From positions 1-10,679 of the IMG/VR virus record IMGVR_UViG_2711768034_000007: DNA of 10,679 bases, one strand, 5' to 3'. The stretch comes from a virus (lineage: Duplodnaviria; Heunggongvirae; Uroviricota; Caudoviricetes). The notes beneath the pieces are model-generated. The model had not been told where the DNA came from and made no database searches. It saw nothing but the letters and a program-made list of their open reading frames with translations. Below are positions 1 through 9,209 of the stretch, piece after piece. Each line of letters begins with the position of its first letter. Positions within the stretch are counted from its first letter, which is position 1. The translations under genes and the position numbers were made by a program.

Positions 1-201
1 TTACCCATTGGCGCGGCTTAAGAGCTTATTTTTGAATTCACAATGGTCACGATATAACCATCTTGCTCGCCCGTGGATAACTTTGGCTTTAGGCAGGTCT
101 CCGGACTTAATCCGGTCATAGATGAAGGTTTTACCGAAGCCAGTATCGGCCATGATGAATTTCAAATCAACCAGGGAATCAGGCTGTAGTTCGTGTTGCA
201 T
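1..201 (-). CDS. Putative excisionase (small HTH DNA-binding protein, Xis/AlpA-like, possibly DUF1233 type); last gene of the leftward operon in the window
   Basis: Complete 66-aa ORF (ATG at 201, stop at 1..3). Small basic protein with W/Y-rich C-terminus typical of small prophage excisionases as I recall them. Lies where xis sits in lambdoid phages, distal to the recombination genes; GGAG about 9 nt upstream of ATG. Not lambda Xis. Confidence 0.5.
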   Translation of the reverse strand: MQHELQPDSLVDLKFIMADTGFGKTFIYDRIKSGDLPKAKVIHGRARWLYRDHCEFKNKLLSRANG

Positions 202-243
202 GAGTGCTATCTCCGAATAGGGAATCGAACCTGCAAATCAGGT

Positions 244-267
244 AATAAAAAACCGCCATCAGGCGGC
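244..267 (-). terminator. Rho-independent terminator (minus strand) after the 55-aa ORF
   Basis: On the minus-strand RNA: GCCGCC-UGAU-GGCGGU stem-loop (5 to 6 bp, GC-rich) followed by UUUUUUAUUACC. The stop codon of the 55-aa ORF lies inside the hairpin. Confidence 0.5.
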
Positions 268-426
268 TTGGTGTTCTTTCAGTTCTTCAATTCGAATATT
301 GGTTACGTCTGCATGTGCTATCTGCGCCCACAGCATCCAGTGGTCATAGCAGTCGTTGATGTTCTCGGCTTCGATAACTCTGTTGAATGGTTCTCCATTC
401 CATTCACCTGTGACTCGGAAGTGCAT
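259..426 (-). CDS. Hypothetical small protein (55 aa)
   Basis: Hand translation of the minus strand: MHFRVTGEWNGEPFNRVIEAENINDCYDHWMLWAQIAHADVTNIRIEELKEHQAA. GGAG 7 nt upstream of ATG; ends in the terminator hairpin. Below the 60-aa track cut-off; preferred over the overlapping track ORFs 193..441(+) and 318..518(-). Confidence 0.4.
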   Translation of the reverse strand: MHFRVTGEWNGEPFNRVIEAENINDCYDHWMLWAQIAHADVTNIRIEELKEHQAA

Positions 427-533
427 TTATCATCTCCATAAAACAAAACTCGCCGTAGCGAGCTCAGATAAAAGAAATCCCCGCGAGTTCGAGGATTGTT
501 ATTCACCTTTGACGGCAAGTTGCAGGTTAGCCA

Positions 534-794
534 TTACCGCACCTCCAGTCTCCATACCGCCTGACCAATCCGGCTGGCATGGGTATCTTTGGATACTGCT
601 CCGTCTTTAGCCAGCTCCATAAGAATTTTGCGCAAATCTGCCGAACACCATTCTTCATCAGGAAATTCCTTCTCCATTGCCAACCGCAGATTCCAGGTTG
701 CTATCGTGAATGGATATTCCCCGCCGAGAGCTTTCTCTTGCAGGGCAGAACGGGAACGCATCACCTGCAAAACCTTCTCTTTTACATCCATCAT
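534..794 (-). CDS. Hypothetical protein (86 aa)
   Basis: Track ORF; start overlaps the stop of the upstream DUF551-like gene by 4 nt (ATGA coupling). Confidence 0.5.
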   Translation of the reverse strand: MMDVKEKVLQVMRSRSALQEKALGGEYPFTIATWNLRLAMEKEFPDEEWCSADLRKILMELAKDGAVSKDTHASRIGQAVWRLEVR

Positions 795-1429
795 TTTGCC
801 TCCTGCGGCGGTTCCGGTAGTGGCATCCAGTGGGTTACGTCATCCAAGATATTGCCTGATAAATATGTGAAAGCTCTGTATTTTTTGTAATCAATTGGAC
901 TCACTACCCAGTTCCAATATGCTGCCACTATTTGACCTTGACTAAATGCCAGTAACATTTTGGTGTCTTCCGGCATTCGCTCACTACAGCTTATCCAACC
1001 ATCCGGAGTTACCGGAGAGTTGCCGGGTTCTTTAATGTGCAAACAAGGATCACCATCTTTTGGTTCAGTCCACTGGCGCTCCATGTTGATCTTCAATTTA
1101 TTTTCCATAGCAGCGGTAATTTCAGCATCACTGATACCAGCACGGCGCTGTGCATCCCACAACAGGAACTGCATATCAGCCCACTCGCTGAGATCGTCTG
1201 GTTCGGCTGCGGCTTCCAGAGCCTCTTTTGAGAGGTGTTTCAGTGGACCAATGGGGCCAACGCAGCCAAATGTGGAGTCAGACCATTTGGCATGCTCGTG
1301 GCGAATCAGTTCGCGTTCCAGTGATGCCAGTGCAATTCGTGCCAGTTCCATTTGTTCGCCACGAGTAAGTCCGTTATCAAGCGGATTTTTAATGAATAAT
1401 TTGATACGTTCTTTGGTTATAGCGTTCAT
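791..1429 (-). CDS. Phage protein with DUF551-like C-terminal domain (212 aa)
   Basis: C-terminal segment (...WISCSERMPE...VTHWMPLPEPP) resembles the DUF551 signature common in lambdoid early regions. AAGGAGAG SD a few nt upstream of ATG; starts 1 nt after the stop of the Ead/Ea22-like gene. Confidence 0.55.
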   Translation of the reverse strand: MNAITKERIKLFIKNPLDNGLTRGEQMELARIALASLERELIRHEHAKWSDSTFGCVGPIGPLKHLSKEALEAAAEPDDLSEWADMQFLLWDAQRRAGISDAEITAAMENKLKINMERQWTEPKDGDPCLHIKEPGNSPVTPDGWISCSERMPEDTKMLLAFSQGQIVAAYWNWVVSPIDYKKYRAFTYLSGNILDDVTHWMPLPEPPQEAK

Positions 1430-1430
1430 C

Positions 1431-1838
1431 TCACTCTCCTTTGATGCGAATGCCAGCGGTGCGGATTGCAGCGATGACTTCAGAAACTTTGTATGCCATT
1501 ACCGTTTGGTAATCATCGTGAAAATCTGTTCGATGAAGCATGCTGCTACGTTCCGGGAGCAGTATTTCCCGCGCTTCCAGTTCTGCAATGCGCTTTTTTG
1601 CTGCTTCCAGTTCATCCAGTAATTCCAGCACGGTAGCCGGATTAGCCTTGGCAACAAAATCCCGGACTGGCTTACAATCAATCTCCGCAATGGGTTGATA
1701 CAATGTGTAGCCATGCTGTCTTGTATAACTACCGTGACGAATAACGAAAAAATCACCATTTATTTTTTTAGCCTGCCACTTATCTTCACCGGCTTTCTCT
1801 GCCGCTTCACGCAGTGCCTGATAGTCAATCTTGTTCAC
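1431..1838 (-). CDS. Ead/Ea22-like protein (135 aa)
   Basis: N-terminus MNKIDYQALREAAEKA... and ...ANPATVLELLDELEAAKKRIAELEA match the Ead/Ea22-like family of lambdoid prophages as I recall it. 4-nt start/stop overlap with upstream gene. Confidence 0.6.
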   Translation of the reverse strand: MNKIDYQALREAAEKAGEDKWQAKKINGDFFVIRHGSYTRQHGYTLYQPIAEIDCKPVRDFVAKANPATVLELLDELEAAKKRIAELEAREILLPERSSMLHRTDFHDDYQTVMAYKVSEVIAAIRTAGIRIKGE

Positions 1839-2059
1839 TCTTCATCCTCCAAGTCGGCAACGGCGTCCATCACATCAGAACCGCGAATAACCTCAAAAGC
1901 ACGGCAGGCCATTTGAAATACCAGTTGCTCTTGCGGGTGAGGAGACTCCCAATATTTGAAGCCTGGGCGATGCGTGTACCCCATCATTGAATAAAAATCA
2001 CCAGCAAGCTTAATCGCGGCATCGACAAGCTCTCTGTTAGTCATTCTTTTTCCGCTCAC
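1835..2059 (-). CDS. Hypothetical protein (74 aa)
   Basis: Track ORF, ATGA-coupled to both neighbours, part of a tightly packed same-strand gene chain. Confidence 0.45.
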   Translation of the reverse strand: MSGKRMTNRELVDAAIKLAGDFYSMMGYTHRPGFKYWESPHPQEQLVFQMACRAFEVIRGSDVMDAVADLEDEE

Positions 2060-2637
2060 TGGTTGCCTCCTTTGCGAAGCTGGGCAGCAAAGTCAACTAA
2101 CCACTCAGTCATTTCAACCTTCCCTACCAGGTCTGAACCAGGGTGCATACAGCAATCACTCTGCGCCGCTTTGAAATCCTTACACTCATATTCTTTGGCC
2201 ACCAGATTTTTTGCAGCTTCTATAGCAGCATCCACCCCCTGCGCCCGCACTTCAGCCAGAAAAGCATCGGTGGCTGGGGTTTCGACATCAAGCACAAACT
2301 GAAACTCATGCAGCGTTTGCCCGTCGATGAAGTCACTGGAATCAGAGCTGATAGTGGCGTTGAATTTCTCGTAGGCCTTGCACGCTTCACTCAGCAATTC
2401 TCGCCCCGTAGACTTCATCCCCGCATTCTCCGCCGCCAGCGCCGCGCACTTGGCCTCAAGGTTATCAATCGTGACTCCAGCAGAACGACACTCACGCAAC
2501 GCCGTTTCCAGTTTTGACTCAAGCTCACCGAACTTACGGACAAGATATTCAGCGTTTGTTTCGTTAACCTTTAAATCTCGTGGGATGCATTTACCTTTCA
2601 GAAATCCATCCATCTCAATTAGTGACATTTGTTTCAT
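2056..2637 (-). CDS. Hypothetical protein (about 193 aa; track ORF extends to 2655, I prefer the ATG at 2637 that overlaps the upstream stop as ATGA)
   Basis: Long ORF with predicted helical/coiled-coil character; start choice based on translational-coupling geometry. Function unknown. Confidence 0.5.
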
Positions 2638-2798
2638 TTCTTCCCACTCCGCCACATCGCATTCAGATATTTGTTTTGATTCACTGAAGGAAAAGAATTT
2701 CTCTTAAGCAATTCCTCTCTCGATGGCATTGGCTTTACGCGTTGGCGAATAATCATTTCTGCCGGAAGAATGCCGGGATTGTATGCAAGTCCTCTCAT
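2634..2798 (-). CDS. Hypothetical small basic protein (54 aa)
   Basis: ATG at 2798 preceded by GAGGAA about 8 nt upstream, immediately after the TGA of the 97-aa gene. This resolves the apparent overlap of track ORFs 2634..2948 and 2809..3102. Confidence 0.4.
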
Positions 2799-2808
2799 GG
2801 TAAATTCC

Positions 2809-3102
2809 TCAGTCATTACTGATAGCGCCATAGCGTGAGCGGTAATTACGCAGGCGCGGGTCAATTTCAGGGAAGTGGGTATATGTGGCTTTGCGGAATG
2901 GTCGGATTGATGTCTGGTAAATTCGCTCGCGTTCTTCTTTCTCTGCAAGCCATATACAATGGCGAAATTCCTTTTCCTCTTTCGTTTCCTGCGGTAGCGA
3001 CATTATCCGGTCGTAGTTTTTCCTGAATTTATCCAGCACCTCCGATACGGAATTGCCGGAACAGCGGCGCGCGTCATCCGCACCATACAGAGGCGCTGGC
3101 AT
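2809..3102 (-). CDS. Hypothetical protein (97 aa)
   Basis: Track ORF; GGAG 6 nt upstream of ATG at 3102; follows the exonuclease gene. Confidence 0.5.
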
Positions 3103-3118
3103 GGTTTTCTCCTGTTGA

Positions 3119-3667
3119 TTATTTAGCTAACTTTTTCCAGATCGCTGAAACGTATTTGGCTTGGTGAATGGCATCATCAAGCGCGTTGTGGCGAGTTCCT
3201 TTGAATGGCATATCTCGCTTAGGGTCGAATCCTATTACCTTCCCAAGTTCGACGATTGTTCTTACGTCGCGGTCATTCCACCACTGCCACGGAACTGGCT
3301 GCCCTGTCAGCGAATAACTGTTTCGGAGAATAACGCAGTCAAATGATGCTCCATTCCCCCAAACCTGAACGAATTTGTGGTTAGCGTTCTTTATGATGAA
3401 TTCAGATAACCATGAAAGAGCCGTTGAAAGCTCCTGAGTGTTGCTGGTTAGCGATTTTCTGGCTTCTTCACTCTGTTCCAGCCACCATAAAATCGTTGAA
3501 GCGTCAGGACGCGCCCGATATCGCATTGATGACTCAAGCGAGATATTTACCGAGAACTCTTCTCCTGTTTCTCCGGTATTCGGGTCAAAGAATACCGCCC
3601 CAATAGAAATAACTGGCGCATATGGCCCGTTGCCCATTGTTTCAAGGTCAACCATTAAGTGATTCAT
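3119..3667 (-). CDS. DEDDh-family 3'-5' exonuclease (DnaQ-like / Rv2179c-like fold), 182 aa
   Basis: Exo motifs visible in the translation: VDLET (Exo I, D-x-E), GASFD (Exo II), HNALDD (Exo III, H-x4-D). AAGGA SD upstream of ATG at 3667. Confidence 0.7.
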   Translation of the reverse strand: MNHLMVDLETMGNGPYAPVISIGAVFFDPNTGETGEEFSVNISLESSMRYRARPDASTILWWLEQSEEARKSLTSNTQELSTALSWLSEFIIKNANHKFVQVWGNGASFDCVILRNSYSLTGQPVPWQWWNDRDVRTIVELGKVIGFDPKRDMPFKGTRHNALDDAIHQAKYVSAIWKKLAK

Positions 3668-3675
3668 GTAAGTCC

Positions 3676-4182
3676 TTAAATTGCGTGAATAGCGTGACGA
3701 GGGAAGGGGAGAGTTACTGGTGCAAAGGGTATATCGTCGTCAAAATCCATCGGAGGTTCGTTGTGTTGTGCTGGTGATGATTGCTGCTGTGGCTTCTGTG
3801 ATTGCCTGCTGGCTGCTTGTTGTTTGCTGTCGCCAATTCCGCCAAGCATTTGCATCACGCCATTAATTCCGACATGAACCTCGGTTGTGTAACGGTCTTG
3901 CCCTGACTGGTCTTTCCACTTTCTGGTTCTCAGCATTCCCTCGAAATAAATCTGATCACCTTTTTTCACATACTGCCCCACGACCTCAGCCAGTTTCCCG
4001 GATACAGCAACACGATGCCATTCAGTCAATTCCTTTTGCTCGCCAGTATTTTTATCTCGCCATTGTTCTGACGTGGCTATTGTCAGGTTAGCGAACGCTG
4101 TACCTGATGGTGAGTATCGAACTTCCGGGTCTTGTCCTACCCGACCAAGGATAATCACCTTATTTACGCCTCTGCTTGCCAT
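3676..4182 (-). CDS. ssb: Single-stranded DNA-binding protein (SSB), with 15 extra residues after the canonical C-terminal DDDIPF
   Basis: N-terminus [10 protein letters not shown]..., OB-fold core (...TEWHRV...[11 protein letters not shown]...MQMLGG) and the [10 protein letters not shown] tail closely match E. coli SSB as I recall it. The ORF continues past DDDIPF as [15 protein letters not shown] before the stop at 3676..3678. Confidence 0.9.
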
Positions 4183-4890
4183 TTATGCCGCCTGTTTTAG
4201 TTCGTTAACTCTGATGTTCATTACCTGAACGCATTTAGCCTGCGCCTCCTCATTGCCAGCCATTAATTGCCAGTCACGCTGATAACGCTCGATGAGTTTT
4301 TTCTTGTCAGTTTCTGTTGACACATAATCGCTGAAGTCTTTCAGGATTTGTTCACAGTCAACCGATGGAGATTTCTGGTTGGTATTTTCTGGTGATGGTT
4401 TGTTATCTGATGCTGGTATTGCCCATCCCGGCAGCGATGGAGGGAGCCAGTAAAATCCTGTTCCATCCTTGAGTTTTGCCCTGTGCCATCCCTGCTTTTT
4501 ATCGAGAGATGTTTGTGCGAAACCTTCCTCAAGGTTATACAGATACCGACCGATTCCCCACTGAACGGCAGCGCGCTTCATTGCACCGGAACGACCACCT
4601 TTGACGGCTTCTACCTGCGTGTTTTCAGCAGCATCCCATTTGGTTACCCATTCGGAATCAATCTTTATTGATATGCCGCATTCAACGCCGCCGTTGTTGG
4701 GAATATCGCGGTATTCATTGCGCCATCCTGCTTTGCCGCAAACATCGTCCAGGCGTTTCATGATTGCCCGGTTCGTGACATAAGCCAGCACCATAGCCCA
4801 CACTTTGCCATCGCGTGTTTTACCGCTTTGCTGTATTCGCCATTCGATATCTTCAGGGCTGAATGGCTCATCGAATTTGTTCAAATCCAT
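4183..4890 (-). CDS. Rad52/Rad22-family single-strand annealing protein (Sak-like recombinase), 235 aa
   Basis: Segments ...RLDDVCGKAGWRNEY... and ...KGGRSGAMKRAAVQWGIGRYLY fit the conserved Rad52 N-terminal annealing-domain pattern. Directly upstream of ssb; GAGGTG SD before ATG. Confidence 0.6.
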   Translation of the reverse strand: MDLNKFDEPFSPEDIEWRIQQSGKTRDGKVWAMVLAYVTNRAIMKRLDDVCGKAGWRNEYRDIPNNGGVECGISIKIDSEWVTKWDAAENTQVEAVKGGRSGAMKRAAVQWGIGRYLYNLEEGFAQTSLDKKQGWHRAKLKDGTGFYWLPPSLPGWAIPASDNKPSPENTNQKSPSVDCEQILKDFSDYVSTETDKKKLIERYQRDWQLMAGNEEAQAKCVQVMNIRVNELKQAA

Positions 4891-4989
4891 AATTCACCTC
4901 AGAATGGACATGGCCCAAGAAAATAACGCTGATTTAATACTTCGACTCGGGACAAATTAAGGCATACCCGCATTCCTTCGCGGTCGCCA

Positions 4990-5148
4990 TTATGGCGATA
5001 CCAGAGAGCTTTCTGCGTGTACATGCGTCTCTGTAACTTGCTCTCCTTCACTGTGGTTGCAAGTGACATGAATATCTCCTTCGTTACCGATTAATTCTTT
5101 CATCTGACGAATGAATTCTTCGTCTGACCAGTTATCTGTAAAACTCAT
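4990..5148 (-). CDS. Hypothetical small acidic protein (52 aa)
   Basis: Hand translation MSFTDNWSDEEFIRQMKELIGNEGDIHVTCNHSEGEQVTETHVHAESSLVSP; ATG overlaps the kil-like stop (ATGA). Confidence 0.35.
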   Translation of the reverse strand: MSFTDNWSDEEFIRQMKELIGNEGDIHVTCNHSEGEQVTETHVHAESSLVSP

Positions 5149-5297
5149 TTCCTGCGATACCATGGAAGGTTGATAGCTGATTTCATCTCTTTATTTGCTT
5201 CAAGCCACATTTTTGAATCACCAATAAATCGGGCTATTACTGCTTTGTTTTGTGCCGCACGAAGCATCTGGTGATTAATGGCTATTTCATTGCGCAT
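5145..5297 (-). CDS. kil: Kil-like small protein (50 aa), candidate FtsZ/cell-division inhibitor
   Basis: Hand translation MRNEIAINHQMLRAAQNKAVIARFIGDSKMWLEANKEMKSAINLPWYRRK. Sits immediately after cIII as kil does in lambda, and has an I-A-x-F-I-G-D-x-K-M core resembling lambda Kil as I recall it. Start overlaps the cIII 3' end. Confidence 0.45.
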   Translation of the reverse strand: MRNEIAINHQMLRAAQNKAVIARFIGDSKMWLEANKEMKSAINLPWYRRK

Positions 5298-5413
5298 AAT
5301 AAGACCTCAACTCTTTTCCATCCGTCACGTAATTTACGGGTGATTCGTTCAAGTAAAGATTCATTTAATTGGAAGGCACCCATGCGAGCGCCTCCCGCGA
5401 TTGCGTAAATCAT
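5282..5413 (-). CDS. cIII: CIII-like protein (43 aa), FtsH inhibitor that stabilises CII
   Basis: Hand translation MIYAIAGGARMGAFQLNESLLERITRKLRDGWKRVEVLLCAMK. The core ESLLERITRKLRDGWKR matches the lambda CIII amphipathic-helix region as I recall it. AAGGA SD 7 nt upstream of ATG. Confidence 0.75.
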   Translation of the reverse strand: MIYAIAGGARMGAFQLNESLLERITRKLRDGWKRVEVLLCAMK

Positions 5414-5437: not shown

Positions 5438-6406
5438 TTAGTAGGTTATTTTTGTTGCGAATACTTCGCCTTTTGCGATGGCTATTATGATATTTTTAGC
5501 AACATCTTCTGATGCGCCAACCTTGATAAGGTCAGCAAGTATTTTGTTATTTACTTCTTTCCGGTGAGCTTTATCCTTTGCTCTACGCTCTTCTTCGTCC
5601 TTGATTCTTTTCCCTTCTGCTATTCTGGCTTGCTCTTTTGCTTCAGCCTCGCGCCGGATTCGTTCAGCCTCCTCCTGTGCTTTTCGGCGTTCTGCTTCAA
5701 TTGCCGCCTGCTTTTCTCTTTCAGCTCGTTCTGCCGCCTCTTTTGCTTCGCGCTGTGCTCGTTGCTCGGCTTCAATGCGTTCACGCTCTGCACGTTCCGC
5801 TGCGGCCTTAGCTTCTGCTTCTCGCCTTGCTGCTGCTTCAATTTCGGCTTTTGCCTTTGCTTCGGCTTCTGCTCTGGCTTTCTCTTCAGCTTCTCTTTTT
5901 AAGCGTTCTTCATGCTCTCGCTTTTCCTGCTCCGCTTTGAGTCTTGCCTCTTCTCTTTGGCGGTCAAATTCGCGATCCATCAAAATCGCTATTTCATGGT
6001 CAGACTCAATTTGCTTTGCGAGAGCTTCAGCTGCTGCCTTAGCTTCTTCTTCGGCTTTAATCCGTGCCTGTTCCTCCTCATAATCAGTAAGAGGCTGGCG
6101 CGCCTTGGCTTTCAGCTCATCAAGGCGATCACGCACTGTCTTGCGGTTAGCATCAATTAGCTTTGGAATTTCCTTCAGTTCAGCAACAAGGTCTTTGCCA
6201 AGACCATCGAGATATGTTTTCGTCTGCGCAACTTTATACGCCAGAGAAGCGATCTCCTTTCTGCCCTTTGCCGTTGTAACATCAGGCACAAAGGACATAA
6301 CTTCACGTTCAACCTTTTGGAGAATTTCTTCAATCTGGTCGGCAGACTGAAATACAGTCATTGCATTTGCTTTTTCAATAACAACTAAATCTGTTACTTC
6401 ACTCAT
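5438..6406 (-). CDS. Charged coiled-coil protein with long E/A/K/R-rich low-complexity core (322 aa from ATG at 6406; track ORF extends to 6502)
   Basis: Start chosen at MSEVTDLVV... because GGAGG lies 5 nt upstream and the upstream in-frame extension runs through a terminator hairpin. Central about 150 aa is EAEAKAKAEIEAAARREAEAKAAAERAERER...-type repeat; N- and C-terminal parts look globular. Confidence 0.6.
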   Translation of the reverse strand: MSEVTDLVVIEKANAMTVFQSADQIEEILQKVEREVMSFVPDVTTAKGRKEIASLAYKVAQTKTYLDGLGKDLVAELKEIPKLIDANRKTVRDRLDELKAKARQPLTDYEEEQARIKAEEEAKAAAEALAKQIESDHEIAILMDREFDRQREEARLKAEQEKREHEERLKREAEEKARAEAEAKAKAEIEAAARREAEAKAAAERAERERIEAEQRAQREAKEAAERAEREKQAAIEAERRKAQEEAERIRREAEAKEQARIAEGKRIKDEEERRAKDKAHRKEVNNKILADLIKVGASEDVAKNIIIAIAKGEVFATKITY

Positions 6407-6418
6407 ATATCCTCCGTC

Positions 6419-6446
6419 AAAAAAAATCGCCCTCACATTGGAGGGC
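6419..6446 (-). terminator. Rho-independent terminator inside the pL operon (tL-type, presumably read through by N-modified RNA polymerase)
   Basis: Minus-strand RNA: GCCCUCCAAUGUGAGGGC hairpin (6-bp GC-rich stem) followed by GAUUUUUUUUGA, immediately upstream of the SD of the coiled-coil gene. Confidence 0.6.
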
Positions 6447-6550
6447 AAAGAAGATTTCCAATAATCAGAACAAGTCGGCTCCTGTTTAGTTACGAGCGAC
6501 ATTGCTCCGTGTATTCACTCGTTGGAATGAATACACAGTGCTTATTTGTA

Positions 6551-7021
6551 CTAATAAAATACCCAATTTTCTGTTTCTTGGTTGTGTCCAAAGTTATATT
6601 CAATATCTGGTGTTGATGTATCAATATTCTTCATCACATCAACAAGAGTTGATACAACAGCCAAATCTTGTTTGATTCTCATTAAATGGTATTTCTTCCG
6701 GCGTAATAAACTCTCAATGGCAAGTTTCTTCGTTGGGAATGCAAAAGATCTTTCTGCATTTTTTGCTACTTTCTTAATTGCATATCTATTTTTCCTTTGT
6801 TTCCATTCCTGTAACCACTGATTTGGTGCTGGTTTAAAATTAACAATCCAATGCGCAGGAACCAACCATGCATAATGCTCTGTCTGATGAAAAGATATAT
6901 ATTGAAGTGCGAATATTTTTATCCCATCTTCTTCAACTGTCGCCTGGAATCTCCAGAAAACAGGCATTCCATCATGTTCAGTTTCTGATTCAGGAAAAGG
7001 TACGCTCCATGATTTTGTCAT
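6551..7021 (-). CDS. Hypothetical protein (156 aa), AT-rich accessory gene directly downstream of N
   Basis: Track ORF; GAGGTG SD about 5 nt upstream of ATG at 7021. Visibly AT-rich relative to flanking genes. Occupies the slot that holds ral/sieB in lambda. No family recognised. Confidence 0.5.
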   Translation of the reverse strand: MTKSWSVPFPESETEHDGMPVFWRFQATVEEDGIKIFALQYISFHQTEHYAWLVPAHWIVNFKPAPNQWLQEWKQRKNRYAIKKVAKNAERSFAFPTKKLAIESLLRRKKYHLMRIKQDLAVVSTLVDVMKNIDTSTPDIEYNFGHNQETENWVFY

Positions 7022-7079
7022 ATCTCACCTCAAATAAGTGGTTTGCTGCCTAATTTCATTTTCTGGCGACCAACACAAG

Positions 7080-7463
7080 TCACCTTGCTGTCAGTTGTTT
7101 TGATTTCCTGTAGCCTGCCGCGTAAAGAGCTACATTTGGAAGACATACACCAGTTTCTGGTTGCTTATGTCCAAACTCATTCGCGTACACAATGGCCGCT
7201 CGCTCCAGATTGCGTCTGTATTCTTTCTGTTGCCAGATCACGTCCTGTGCCATGAACTTAATTGGCTTAGCGTCTTCTATGCGCTCAGGCGTTTCGTGAG
7301 TACCTTTAGCCTGAATCTGCGCTCTGCTTAGAGTAGGGCGGTGTAATACTTCTGAACTTATTGCTTCTTCGCGGGCCAGTACGCCGTTAGCTAATGCCTT
7401 TGCCTTTAAACGCTCACGACGACGAGAACGTGAATTGCCTTTGAACTGAGTTCTGCGTGTCAT
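7080..7463 (-). CDS. N: Antitermination protein N (P22 gp24 / phage 21 N-like), 127 aa
   Basis: First gene downstream of pL and nutL. Arginine-rich N-terminal motif (SRSRRRERLKAKALANG). C-terminus ...LPNVALYAAGYRKSKQLTAR closely resembles the P22 N-type C-terminus as I recall it. Strong SD (CAGGAGG) 5 nt upstream of ATG. Confidence 0.8.
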   Translation of the reverse strand: MTRRTQFKGNSRSRRRERLKAKALANGVLAREEAISSEVLHRPTLSRAQIQAKGTHETPERIEDAKPIKFMAQDVIWQQKEYRRNLERAAIVYANEFGHKQPETGVCLPNVALYAAGYRKSKQLTAR

Positions 7464-7628
7464 ATAGACCTCCTGATGAACTTTGGTGGTGTGGTAGGTG
7501 GGAGACCCATTTCGACCTGTTTCGGCCTACTTCAATTCGGCAATAGTCCCGCAGGCCTCGCCGCTTTACGTGCGACATATTCCCGTCCATGAACCATTCA
7601 CCACACCCCAAAGTTCACTTTGGTTATT

Positions 7629-7643
7629 GCGCTTTGTCAGCGC
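7629..7643 (-). promoter_or_regulatory. nutL boxB hairpin (P22-type)
   Basis: Minus-strand RNA reads GCGCUGACAAAGCGC (5-bp stem, 5-nt loop), about 60 nt downstream of the pL start; I recall this as the P22-type boxB sequence. No convincing boxA (CGCUCUUA-like) found upstream. Confidence 0.55.
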
Positions 7644-7704
7644 CGTAGATTCATATTCGAATCGTTGTATATTCACCGCCCTGGTGAGTAGTGCGTCCTG
7701 CTGA

Positions 7705-7740
7705 TGTGTTTAGTATCACCGCCAGTGGTATTTATGTCAA
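7705..7740 (-). promoter_or_regulatory. pL promoter (leftward early promoter)
   Basis: On the minus strand: -35 TTGACA (plus-strand 7735..7740), 17-bp spacer containing OL1, -10 GATACT (7712..7717), inferred start near 7705. Nearly identical to lambda pL as I recall it. Confidence 0.85.
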
Positions 7741-7774
7741 CACCGCCAGAGATAATTTATCACCGCAGATGGTT
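7714..7774. promoter_or_regulatory. OL operators: OL1 7714..7730, OL2 7738..7754, OL3 7758..7774
   Basis: Three 17-bp CI-binding half-palindromes read directly from the sequence: TATCACCGCCAGTGGTA, CAACACCGCCAGAGATA, TATCACCGCAGATGGTT, matching lambda OL1 to OL3 as I recall them. Confidence 0.9.
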
Positions 7775-7930
7775 ATCTGTATGTTTTTTATATAGATTTA
7801 TTTTTTTGCAGGGGTGTGTGGCTTGGGAGGTGATCGAGAGATCTGAATTGCGATGTTTAGTGAGTTGTATCTATTAATTTTCAAATAAATACAATTGGTT
7901 ATGTGTTTTGGGGCGAACGTGAGGCAAAGA

Positions 7931-7956
7931 AAACCCGGCGCGGTGGCCGGGTTTAT
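7931..7956. terminator. Hairpin terminator closing the cI-distal cassette (terminates leftward cI-operon transcription before OL/pL; potentially bidirectional)
   Basis: AAACCCGGC-GCGGTG-GCCGGGTTT: 6-bp GC stem extendable by A/T pairs, flanked by A-run on one side and T-run (TTTATTTATT) on the other. Immediately 3' of the stop (7957..7959) of the 216-aa gene. Confidence 0.6.
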
Positions 7957-8607
7957 TTATTGCTTAGGAGCTTGTTGTGATGACGATTGGTTAGTTGGAG
8001 CGCTCGTTAATGGTTGCTGTGTCGGTACCTGTATTATAATTGGAGCCGGGCTGGTTACTGATGGTGACTTGTCATTGCCGGAGATAATCCAACTTGAGGC
8101 TAACATCACGCCAGACAGAATCACAGTAACTAAAGTCAAGCCAACGGCCATCGCCCACTGAGTCGTTGTAAGTCCCGTTTTCAAACCGCCGATTTCACCT
8201 TTAATTTCAGCAATACCTCTCTCAATAGAAGAAAATTGCTGAGTATAATAGGTTTTAAAGTCAGCTGATTCGCGACGCATTTCCGCAGCAATAGACTCTA
8301 CCTCTGATTTGTTTTGTGAAAGCTTTGCGTCAAGTTCTTCTCTGGACATTCCGCTCACGCTTACCTCCAGGGTATCACTCTTCATCGCTACATCTTCCTT
8401 ACTTGGGCGCAAACCCGTTTCGTCCATGGCGTATGAAACTCTATTTGATACCTTAGCATCAATACCAATACTTTGGTACTGAGATGGATCCCCATAAGGA
8501 GAAACGGTTGTCGCTGCTAGGGTTGCACTAACTATAATACTTGGAAGAACTGATGATGTTGTTCCTGAGGTAGGTTGAACTGAAGAAACTGGCTTCAGTC
8601 TTTCCAT
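7957..8607 (-). CDS. Membrane-anchored protein (216 aa): S/T-rich N-terminus, predicted helical/coiled-coil middle, one C-terminal transmembrane helix, short S/P/Q-rich tail. Function unknown; occupies the rexAB slot
   Basis: Track ORF. Hydrophobic stretch WAMAVGLTLVTVILSGVMLASSWII near the C-terminus. ATG overlaps the stop of the upstream 88-aa gene by 13 nt (translational coupling). Terminator follows immediately. AT-rich. Confidence 0.55.
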   Translation of the reverse strand: MERLKPVSSVQPTSGTTSSVLPSIIVSATLAATTVSPYGDPSQYQSIGIDAKVSNRVSYAMDETGLRPSKEDVAMKSDTLEVSVSGMSREELDAKLSQNKSEVESIAAEMRRESADFKTYYTQQFSSIERGIAEIKGEIGGLKTGLTTTQWAMAVGLTLVTVILSGVMLASSWIISGNDKSPSVTSPAPIIIQVPTQQPLTSAPTNQSSSQQAPKQ

Positions 8608-8861
8608 AGCCCATTATCCCTGAGAGCTACCTGTAATGATTTTACTAATGCAACAGCTTGATCCGGGCTCATTGAGACTGACATGTTAGGGGTCAACTCA
8701 ACTTTTACTTGGAAGCTATTATTTCCTTGCTCATCAGACTGCATGTGATGCTCAAATTCATGGCGGTAAAAAGTAATGATTGTTTCAGCACGATCAGGCG
8801 TAATAAGAACTGATGTGGCGGTCATGTGCTGAGGTATGATTTTAATAGTGTTATCTGACAT
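8595..8861 (-). CDS. Hypothetical soluble protein (88 aa from ATG at 8861; track ORF extends to 9002), first gene of a coupled pair in the rexAB slot
   Basis: Start MSDNTIKIIPQHM... preferred: AAGGA SD about 5 nt upstream. Overlaps the downstream 216-aa gene. AT-rich. No family recognised. Confidence 0.5.
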   Translation of the reverse strand: MSDNTIKIIPQHMTATSVLITPDRAETIITFYRHEFEHHMQSDEQGNNSFQVKVELTPNMSVSMSPDQAVALVKSLQVALRDNGLWKD

Positions 8862-9053
8862 AAGTATCCTTTTTGTTTCCTTAGTATTTTTTTGCATTGA
8901 CATCAGAAATAGCGAATCCACAAGAGTATGAGTAAAGCTAATCAGTTTAGTGATACGGTGACTATTAAAGTGGTAAACCACATCAAAGCTCGCAGAGTGC
9001 ATACCAGGCTGTCACACATGACAAAGTAACGAGGATGCCTGATCTCATAGCGC

Positions 9054-9209
9054 TCAAAGAGACATGCCGATAATGGCATTAACCACGCATGACGCCATAA
9101 ACACGCCGCCAACGATGAAGCTGGCTTGGTTCTTCCTGGTAGCGCCAAGAGTCAACAGAACCACTGAAAGGGCAAAAAAAGGTATCGCGATTATGCTGAA
9201 CGTGTTCAT
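9054..9209 (-). CDS. Candidate small membrane peptide (51 aa, two predicted transmembrane helices)
   Basis: Hand translation MNTFSIIAIPFFALSVVLLTLGATRKNQASFIVGGVFMASCVVNAIIGMSL: two hydrophobic helices separated by RKNQ. GAGG about 5 nt upstream of ATG; 77 nt downstream of the cI stop. Below track cut-off; speculative. Confidence 0.3.
   Translation of the reverse strand: MNTFSIIAIPFFALSVVLLTLGATRKNQASFIVGGVFMASCVVNAIIGMSL

Follow-up and report, generated by a model that had tools for sequence, protein, structure and literature searches.

Between N and ea10, the early-left (pL) operon of phage lambda carries sieB, orf28 and ral, two of which (ral and sieB) were correctly named in an earlier note on the DNA studied here, and the terminator tL1 lies within the sieB/orf28 interval that splits ral from N. 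The membrane protein SieB is encoded on the strand opposite to pL transcription, with its own promoter active in the lysogen, and P22 holds SieB-Esc in the same N-proximal early-left interval. Ral of lambda and P22 is a 66-residue protein, encoded in the pL orientation by a promoter-less, pL-dependent gene. The ral–ea10 spacer of lambda encodes an Hfq-dependent small RNA, LPR1/PreS (~88 and 68 nt), whose 3′ end is the terminator tL2a and which is made from 10 min post induction and up-regulates dnaN (bioRxiv 10.1101/2024.10.31.621285). Variable regions with ral have been shown to hold other defense-interacting genes, including orf184, a gene of the ral accessory region that triggers gop-beta-cII (bioRxiv 10.1101/2023.04.06.535777). 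The accessory-region (anti-defense island) genes described by Silas et al. are short, variable and AT-rich, and occupy a hypervariable slot between conserved elements.

Here, we analyzed a 10,679-nucleotide stretch of viral DNA (the window; IMG/VR record IMGVR_UViG_2711768034_000007) that derives from a mosaic lambdoid phage and covers its immunity region together with the early-left arm, combining lambda-type cI, cro and oL/pL with H-19B/933W-type nutL and N and with HK97-like genes that replace rexAB (Table 1). Between N and PreS/tL2a, in the place of lambda's ral/orf28/sieB, it carries a ~500-bp promoter-less cassette consisting of a Shine–Dalgarno sequence (SD) and an open reading frame. 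The gene is known as gp45 in HK97, as L0079 in 933W and as ORF20 in Min27, whereas H-19B carries it without annotation; we refer to it as the gp45-type gene. In HK97, 933W and Min27 the same gene occupies the same place after N and is followed by the same terminator, with amino acid identities of 97-98% to HK97 gp45 and 933W L0079, whereas the 3′ neighbor of the gene is a TolA-like gene in the window phage, cIII in HK97 and ea10/ssb in 933W.

Table 1. Features of the window, in order of position
Feature	Position	Strand	Basis or remark
Abc2-like anti-RecBCD gene	2809-3102	-	RefSeq annotation, near-identical prophage
3′-5′ exonuclease	3119-3667	-	RefSeq annotation, near-identical prophage
SSB	3676-4182	-	RefSeq annotation, near-identical prophage
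Rad52-type annealase	4183-4890	-	RefSeq annotation, near-identical prophage
kil	5145-5297	-	RefSeq annotation, near-identical prophage
cIII	5282-5413	-	RefSeq annotation, near-identical prophage
Intrinsic terminator, lambda tL2a homologue; 8-bp stem with 5 GC pairs, T8	6419..6448	-	Terminator scan; HK97 record annotates putative terminator
Homologue of lambda sRNA LPR1/PreS, ~88 nt	6419..6506	-	5′ end approximate, set by length from 3′ end
14-bp perfect hairpin (GUGUAUUCAUUC/GAGUGAAUACAC core), first element of lambda-homologous ral 3′ flank	6504..6541	-	Invariant in six phages
gp45-type gene, 156-aa soluble basic protein	6551..7021	-	HK97 gp45, 933W L0079, PHROG 1636
N-to-gene spacer, contains SD GAGGTGA (7031..7025)	7022..7079	-	Segment common to all cassette copies from ~7037 (TTATTTGAGGTGAGAT)
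N antiterminator, 127 aa, HK97/933W/H-19B allele	7080..7463	-	PF25694 E 9.8e-16, phrog_271; annotated N in HK97, 933W
nutL, H-19B/933W type, boxB GCGCTGACAAAGCGC	7629..7695	-	Near-identical to annotated 933W nutL
pL promoter (TTGACA-17-GATACT; TATCTCTGGCGGTGTTGACATAAATACCACTGGCGGTGATACT) in lambda-type oL operators	7712..7740	-	Promoter scan 10/12; same hexamers at lambda pL

Positions 1-5300 (minus strand) form a P22/HK97-style recombination module, not lambda exo-bet-gam. Between cI and pL, at the place of lambda rexA/rexB, the minus strand of 7957-9209 holds HK97 gp48/gp49-type ORFs (7957-8607, phrog_5820; 8595-9002, phrog_26809) and a 51-aa hydrophobic ORF (9054-9209); in the lysogen their expression would accompany that of cI, and they are therefore candidate prophage defense genes. 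The hairpin at 7931-7954 is a bidirectional terminator.

The 156 codons of the gp45-type gene run from an ATG to a TAG, starting 58 nt after the end of N, in agreement with the earlier description of a 156-aa gene immediately downstream of N. The ribosome-binding site is strong, its SD ending 3 bases 5′ of the ATG, and the PHROG 1636 profile (phrog_1636) covers residues 1-156 of 156 (E 8e-110), confirming that the start codon is correct. By an arithmetic estimate, a stop-free run of this length would arise by chance at this base composition with a probability of ~1e-5. With a GC content of 0.352 (GC3 0.274), compared with 0.457 for the whole window, the gene is the most AT-rich stretch present: a GC content this low recurs in only 1.2% of all 471-nt windows, every one of which overlaps the gene, and the lowest value for a window that does not overlap it is 0.386. 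The AT-richness against the neighboring genes that had been noticed by eye is thus real.

The gene is also kept under selection. A search of 5,426 complete E. coli genomes found near-identical DNA in 598, with at least 80% of the gene covered in 593 of them; 40 alignment columns are invariant across 21 orthologues with identities down to 55%; and the informative comparison gave a dN/dS of ~0.17 at a dS of 0.55, indicative of purifying selection. The copies count as full-length in the same 593 of 598 genomes, which speaks against decay. The gp45-type gene is therefore a genuine, selectively maintained gene that encodes an 18.6-kDa soluble protein of the HK97 gp45/933W L0079 family. Its designation as an orphan with no recognizable family in the earlier note does not hold, since 11% of complete E. 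coli genomes carry the gene and it belongs to PHROG 1636 and to a superfamily that counts 86 clusters. It is found in ~85 phage records, always labeled 'hypothetical protein', and the Shiga-toxin phages that carry it include 933W, Min27, BP-4795, PA28 and Stx1a phages. Orthologues with identities down to 55% occur in Pectobacterium, Brenneria, Cronobacter and Rosenbergiella, and in metagenomes. The 86 clusters (at 50% identity) were obtained at E ≤ 1e-3 from a profile search of 1.84 billion representatives; members of this wider family are mostly 135-155 aa long, share 20-28% identity and have the motif Y[RK]…G[IVL]…ET…K[RK]xxK…sRFAFxTKxxAxxxLxxRKxxQLxHLxRxL followed by a C-terminal [YF]xF[D]. 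G33, T47 and K87 are nearly invariant and A101 is invariant, and the basic K[RK]xxK and RK elements are prominent in the consensus. The four PHROGs matched by 67 family members are all uncharacterized. The larger profile-matching proteins P0063, P0080 and P0051 were considered as possible fusions; their matches are to repeats or low-complexity segments and are uninformative.

As a rule, the gene lies within the early-left (pL) operon, reads in its direction and usually comes directly 3′ of N. In the window, pL drives the operon, and pL, nutL, N, the gp45-type gene and the terminator all have one orientation. From the pL leader to the gene, our scan, whose terminator search covers intrinsic sites and also missed lambda tL1 itself, predicted neither a sigma-70-like promoter nor a T-run intrinsic terminator; Rho-dependent termination may occur between N and the gene. 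Whereas lambda ral is split from N by the sieB/orf28 interval, no predicted element separates the gp45-type gene from N. With regard to the promoter and terminator of its own that would characterize a moron, no sigma-70-like site was found on the minus strand in 7022-7463, and the terminator 3′ of the gene is the lambda-like backbone tL2a/PreS element, present in lambda without the gene. Of the intrinsic terminators predicted after pL, this one, with its stem at 6448..6427 continued by T8 as far as 6419, comes first. The gene does lie ahead of it, as had been noted; the terminator itself, earlier placed at 6419..6446, is present, although it is not private to the gp45-type gene, being the lambda tL2a homologue and PreS 3′ end.

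This arrangement suggests when the protein would be made. In a lysogen the gp45-type gene should be silent, because it has no promoter of its own, pL is repressed and the terminator at 7931..7954 separates the gene from the cI transcript. Upon infection or induction, a pL transcript of ~1.29 kb, starting near 7705 and reaching 6419, would carry N, the gp45-type gene and PreS. As the first pL transcript can presumably stop at the tL2a-like terminator and would already contain both N and the gp45-type gene, their products would be made immediately, with little or no antitermination needed. In other phages, orthologues with 57-83% identity lie 3′ of an N-like gene in seven of nine enterobacterial contexts, with at least five N alleles, and three of these orthologues have their own, differing terminator hairpins directly after the stop codon. 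The recurrence of the N–gene–terminator layout with different N alleles and different hairpins argues that early co-expression with N is selected. In Pectobacterium and Brenneria prophages the orthologue adjoins xis-int, not N.

The DNA that follows the gene is lambda-like. Similarity starts 9 nt past the stop codon, at the ral 3′ flank, and the ~130 nt that follow the stop codon are ~99% identical to the lambda ral–ea10 spacer; in the stretch that begins with GCACTG (6541) and closes with the terminator stem, a single base differs from lambda, in the terminator loop, and the T-run is T8 here compared with T6 in lambda. The position of the gene in the ral/sieB region, proposed in the earlier note, is therefore correct at base-pair resolution. 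PreS in the window is known by sequence identity, the Hfq binding and the lytic-cycle RNA being lambda data, and an Rfam scan of 6300-7800 was empty, Rfam having no PreS model. By homology, PreS would form the 3′ UTR of the gp45-type gene in the window phage, not of ral. A 354-aa ORF from an ATG at 6502 was rejected as an artifact, since this ATG lies inside PreS and the frame reads through the terminator; a PHROG profile (phrog_1376) and an SD (GGAGGA) place the true ATG of this TolA-like gene at 6406. The TolA-like product is a very charged coiled coil, rich in E, A, K and R, and its gene region has an AT skew of -0.73 at 5550-5850.

Comparison of the copies defines the cassette as a unit of ~500 bp, 96.6-99.6% identical, that is found in at least five downstream contexts (including the TolA-like gene, cIII, ea10/ssb and gp17) and behind several N alleles. 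When six E. coli phages are aligned, the common unit runs from at or just before the SD, only ~16 nt 5′ of the ATG, through the terminator, and the flanks then diverge. The boundaries are clearest in E. coli CU568-3 (locus L014, 2990-3560, compared with 6542-7037 in the window), where imperfect direct repeats of the lambda-like ral 3′ flank, GAATAA(ACACT)GCACTG, bracket the cassette, AATTATTTGAGGTGAGAT-ATG…TAG-TACGAATAA; the minimal insert is therefore ~500 bp long and promoter-less. The flanks in CU568-3 look as if recombination at short homologies had inserted the cassette. Elsewhere in the region, module junctions are marked by a recurrent hairpin, GCCGCATAGTCGGCCTTT, which is also present 3′ of the orthologues in L011 and L017. 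For the recent horizontal acquisition put forward in the earlier note, these data substantiate the movement of the cassette, although they do not date it, so that recency finds no support.

To what else the slot is open was addressed with 120 viral contigs (IMG/VR loci L022-L141) collected by the exact 42-nt PreS core. Among 105 PreS-bearing contigs, the gene just 5′ of PreS encodes Ral in 35, the gp45-type protein in 17, an Nmad5-family protein in nine and an ECs1180-like protein in two; the other 42 hold additional, unrelated ORF types, at least six of them among the commonest listed. The gp45-type gene is thus one of at least ten alternative cassettes, and in lambda, P22 and Sakai Sp5 the same interval is filled by other genes: the slot between N and PreS is a hypervariable accessory site. 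The Nmad5-family occupant is a 'nucleotide modification' protein, and its gene co-occurs with ral or with the gp45-type gene. Other occupants include an apparently hydrophobic 140-149-aa protein starting with MEEQANKILVELL and a 62-aa MKVKITASNTSF protein, and all of these small ORFs are candidates for the same kind of function.

The gp45-type gene and ral fill one and the same slot, bounded to the base by N on one side and the hairpin-PreS-tL2a block on the other, and the gp45-type gene is likewise pL-oriented, promoter-less and dependent on pL, but it encodes 156 residues without sequence similarity to Ral. In the 94 PreS contigs that extend 1.5 kb or more upstream, the gp45-type gene is present in 13 and ral in 43, never the two together (hypergeometric P 1.6e-4, uncorrected for relatedness). 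The mutual exclusion may reflect lineage structure or plain allelism at one site. SieB shares the N-proximal interval, whereas it is set apart by its strand and promoter, the gp45-type protein being soluble, co-oriented with pL and unrelated in sequence. The Silas et al. genes resemble the gp45-type gene in length, variability, base composition and setting, and their accessory regions, like the gp45 slot, also host a known counter-defense gene; however, none of their tested genes was matched to the gp45-type gene by sequence in the supplementary files.

Searches for a known function returned only negative results. Pfam, NCBIfam and PADLOC gave noise for both the gp45-type protein and the 67 family members, the best PADLOC-DB match being E 0.015 for the protein itself and E 0.0012 for the family members, with no PADLOC-DB family matched by more than three of them; a PDB sequence search with two profiles likewise gave noise. 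In these databases, no homology to characterized counter-defense, takeover or nucleic-acid-binding proteins was detected. Comparison with Ral of lambda and P22 gave a BLASTP E of 24, with no match to a Pfam or PHROG Ral family, the best SieB hit was E 0.2 over 14 residues, and P22 gp17 gave E 4.4; in H-19B and PA28, gp17 is a separate gene neighboring the gp45-type gene. Three specific leads were rejected. The resemblance of the RFAFxTKeeA (K..sRFAFxTKeeA) motif to an AP2/GCC-box-like DNA-binding domain reached an hhalign probability of 0.5%; the 'H-x-T' motif of a 2H-phosphoesterase fails because the His is replaced by R, K or G in many members and the second motif is absent; and orf184 of Silas et al. 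has a different N-terminus (MEALVVERSEDGYWT) that does not match the gp45-type protein. The gp45-type sequence was not found in the supplementary files of two Silas et al. papers, nor HK97 in the supplements of bioRxiv 10.1101/2023.04.06.535777, and we found no relevant literature on L0079, HK97 gp45 or PHROG 1636. The distant homologues (20-28% identity) also lie in early operons of phages or prophages (L004, L006/L007, L021, L143, L144); a DNA methyltransferase gene is present within 5 kb in five of eight contexts, and in L143 a Lar restriction-alleviation gene lies two genes upstream. This linkage is compatible with an anti-restriction neighborhood, and five of eight contexts are too weak a basis to use it as a functional clue.

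The protein has a pI of 9.05 and no transmembrane segment (maximum 19-aa hydropathy 0.77), and its residues 71-120 contain 16 K/R with a net charge of +12, with acidic ends on either side. An AlphaFold model built with 21 close orthologues reached a pLDDT of only 56.6 and was discarded, whereas an alignment of 103 sequences that included the distant relatives gave a pLDDT of 95.1 and a pTM of 0.82. The latter AF2 model contains a long beta-hairpin (residues 19-46), two more strands and three helices, of which two are short and one spans 33 residues (98-130); its C-terminal tail is ordered. PDB fold searches with it revealed no significant relative, and a fold search against predicted viral structures returned 13 matches at E < 1e-3, all to uncharacterized proteins of phages that infect Erwinia, Achromobacter, Delftia, Rhizobium, Sinorhizobium, Tenacibaculum and Cellulophaga. 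On the strength of these models, the fold is predicted to be phage-specific and to extend beyond the lambdoid group, into phages that we take to be lytic. The remote-homology and structure searches that the earlier note had proposed thus matched no structural or metabolic protein, and yielded a confident model without a PDB relative.

The evidence on what the protein does is circumstantial, and guilt by position is a weak argument. The reading that we favor, tentatively and at somewhat less than even confidence, is that of a soluble, basic, immediate-early accessory protein that acts on a host macromolecule for counter-defense or takeover. An early role directed at the host is favored because of the early expression, dispensability, cassette exchange, exclusivity with ral, phage-restricted fold and basic face of the protein. 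The protein would be non-essential and would bind its target through the basic beta4-loop-long-helix face (residues 71-120, with their 16 K/R); the target would be a nucleic acid or an acidic protein surface, and binding, rather than catalysis, would blunt a host defense or reprogram the host. It would then be a functional alternative to Ral and not its relative. A bolder version, which we consider possible but doubtful, is that the protein is the founding member of a phage-specific effector family with a new structure that acts in the immediate-early phase; made with N before antitermination, it would neutralize a host defense and stand in functionally for Ral in HK97-like phages and most 933W-type Stx phages, with a different fold and probably a different target.

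The basic patch in the model could equally serve a role internal to the phage. The protein would in that case be an early regulator or an accessory of DNA or RNA transactions, binding nucleic acid of the phage or the machineries of transcription, recombination or integration, and would tune N-dependent transcription, the lysis–lysogeny choice, excision or recombination, not host immunity. We regard this alternative as unlikely, though it is the best of the rivals: the conserved surface is strongly basic, the protein has a long helix, the gene is always in early-left operons (by N, by xis-int or ahead of a ParB-like gene), and family members also occur in non-lambdoid phages. However, lambda, P22 and Sp5 lack the gene, so that it is dispensable for lambdoid growth as such, and a specific partnership with N is made less plausible by the free exchange of the gene among five or more unrelated N alleles; the protein has no recognizable DNA-binding motif, the AP2 comparison described above having failed.

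It is less likely still that the protein, whatever its other early role, is notable chiefly as something sensed by host abortive-infection systems. The precedent is orf184, itself from a ral accessory region, and the diversity of cassettes at the slot is compatible with arms-race turnover. That precedent is nevertheless a different protein, as its N-terminus demonstrates, neither the gp45-type sequence nor HK97 appears in the supplements of the study concerned, and a trigger role does not explain the purifying selection on the gene.

AT-rich accessory genes in prophages are often defense genes, and sieB lies in this very N-to-ral interval in both lambda and P22; the two observations would suit superinfection exclusion or prophage defense of the SieB or Rex kind, shielding the lysogen from other phages. 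We nonetheless consider this improbable, more so than the trigger role. SieB-like exclusion is disfavored because the gene has no predicted sigma-70-like promoter of its own upstream and is oriented with the repressed pL, unlike sieB, and because the protein has no membrane segment (with the hydropathy maximum given above) and no similarity to SieB; in addition, the terminator at 7931..7954 isolates the gene from the cI transcript, and PADLOC gave no meaningful match for the protein or its 67 family members. Finally, a non-functional or decaying ORF hitch-hiking beside the selected PreS/tL2a element, for which the lack of annotation alone would speak, is improbable in the extreme and, judged by the conservation data (dN/dS, invariant columns and full-length copies), effectively refuted, and the confident structure prediction and the relatives in phages without PreS likewise contradict it.

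The 933W and HK97 genome records already list the gp45-type gene, so the feature itself is not new; what is new here is the delineation of the cassette in the ral slot 5′ of PreS/tL2a, the exclusivity with ral, the wider family and a confident model without a solved relative. The gene is best filed as an uncharacterized lambdoid early-left accessory gene, a well-defined experimental target and not a surprise. Roughly one in nine complete E. coli genomes and many Shiga-toxin phages carry it, with neither a Pfam family nor a solved structural relative. Its location, at the place in the early-left operon that is most privileged for expression and exactly where lambda has ral, together with the exclusivity, makes it a sharply defined candidate for anti-defense screens, and now that the cassette boundaries are defined, a clean ral-for-gp45 swap is possible. 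Should it prove inert in anti-defense assays, it would stay an ordinary hypothetical accessory gene; should it be a true counter-defense factor, it would enlarge that repertoire by a new fold and would bear on the spread of Stx phages among E. coli strains.
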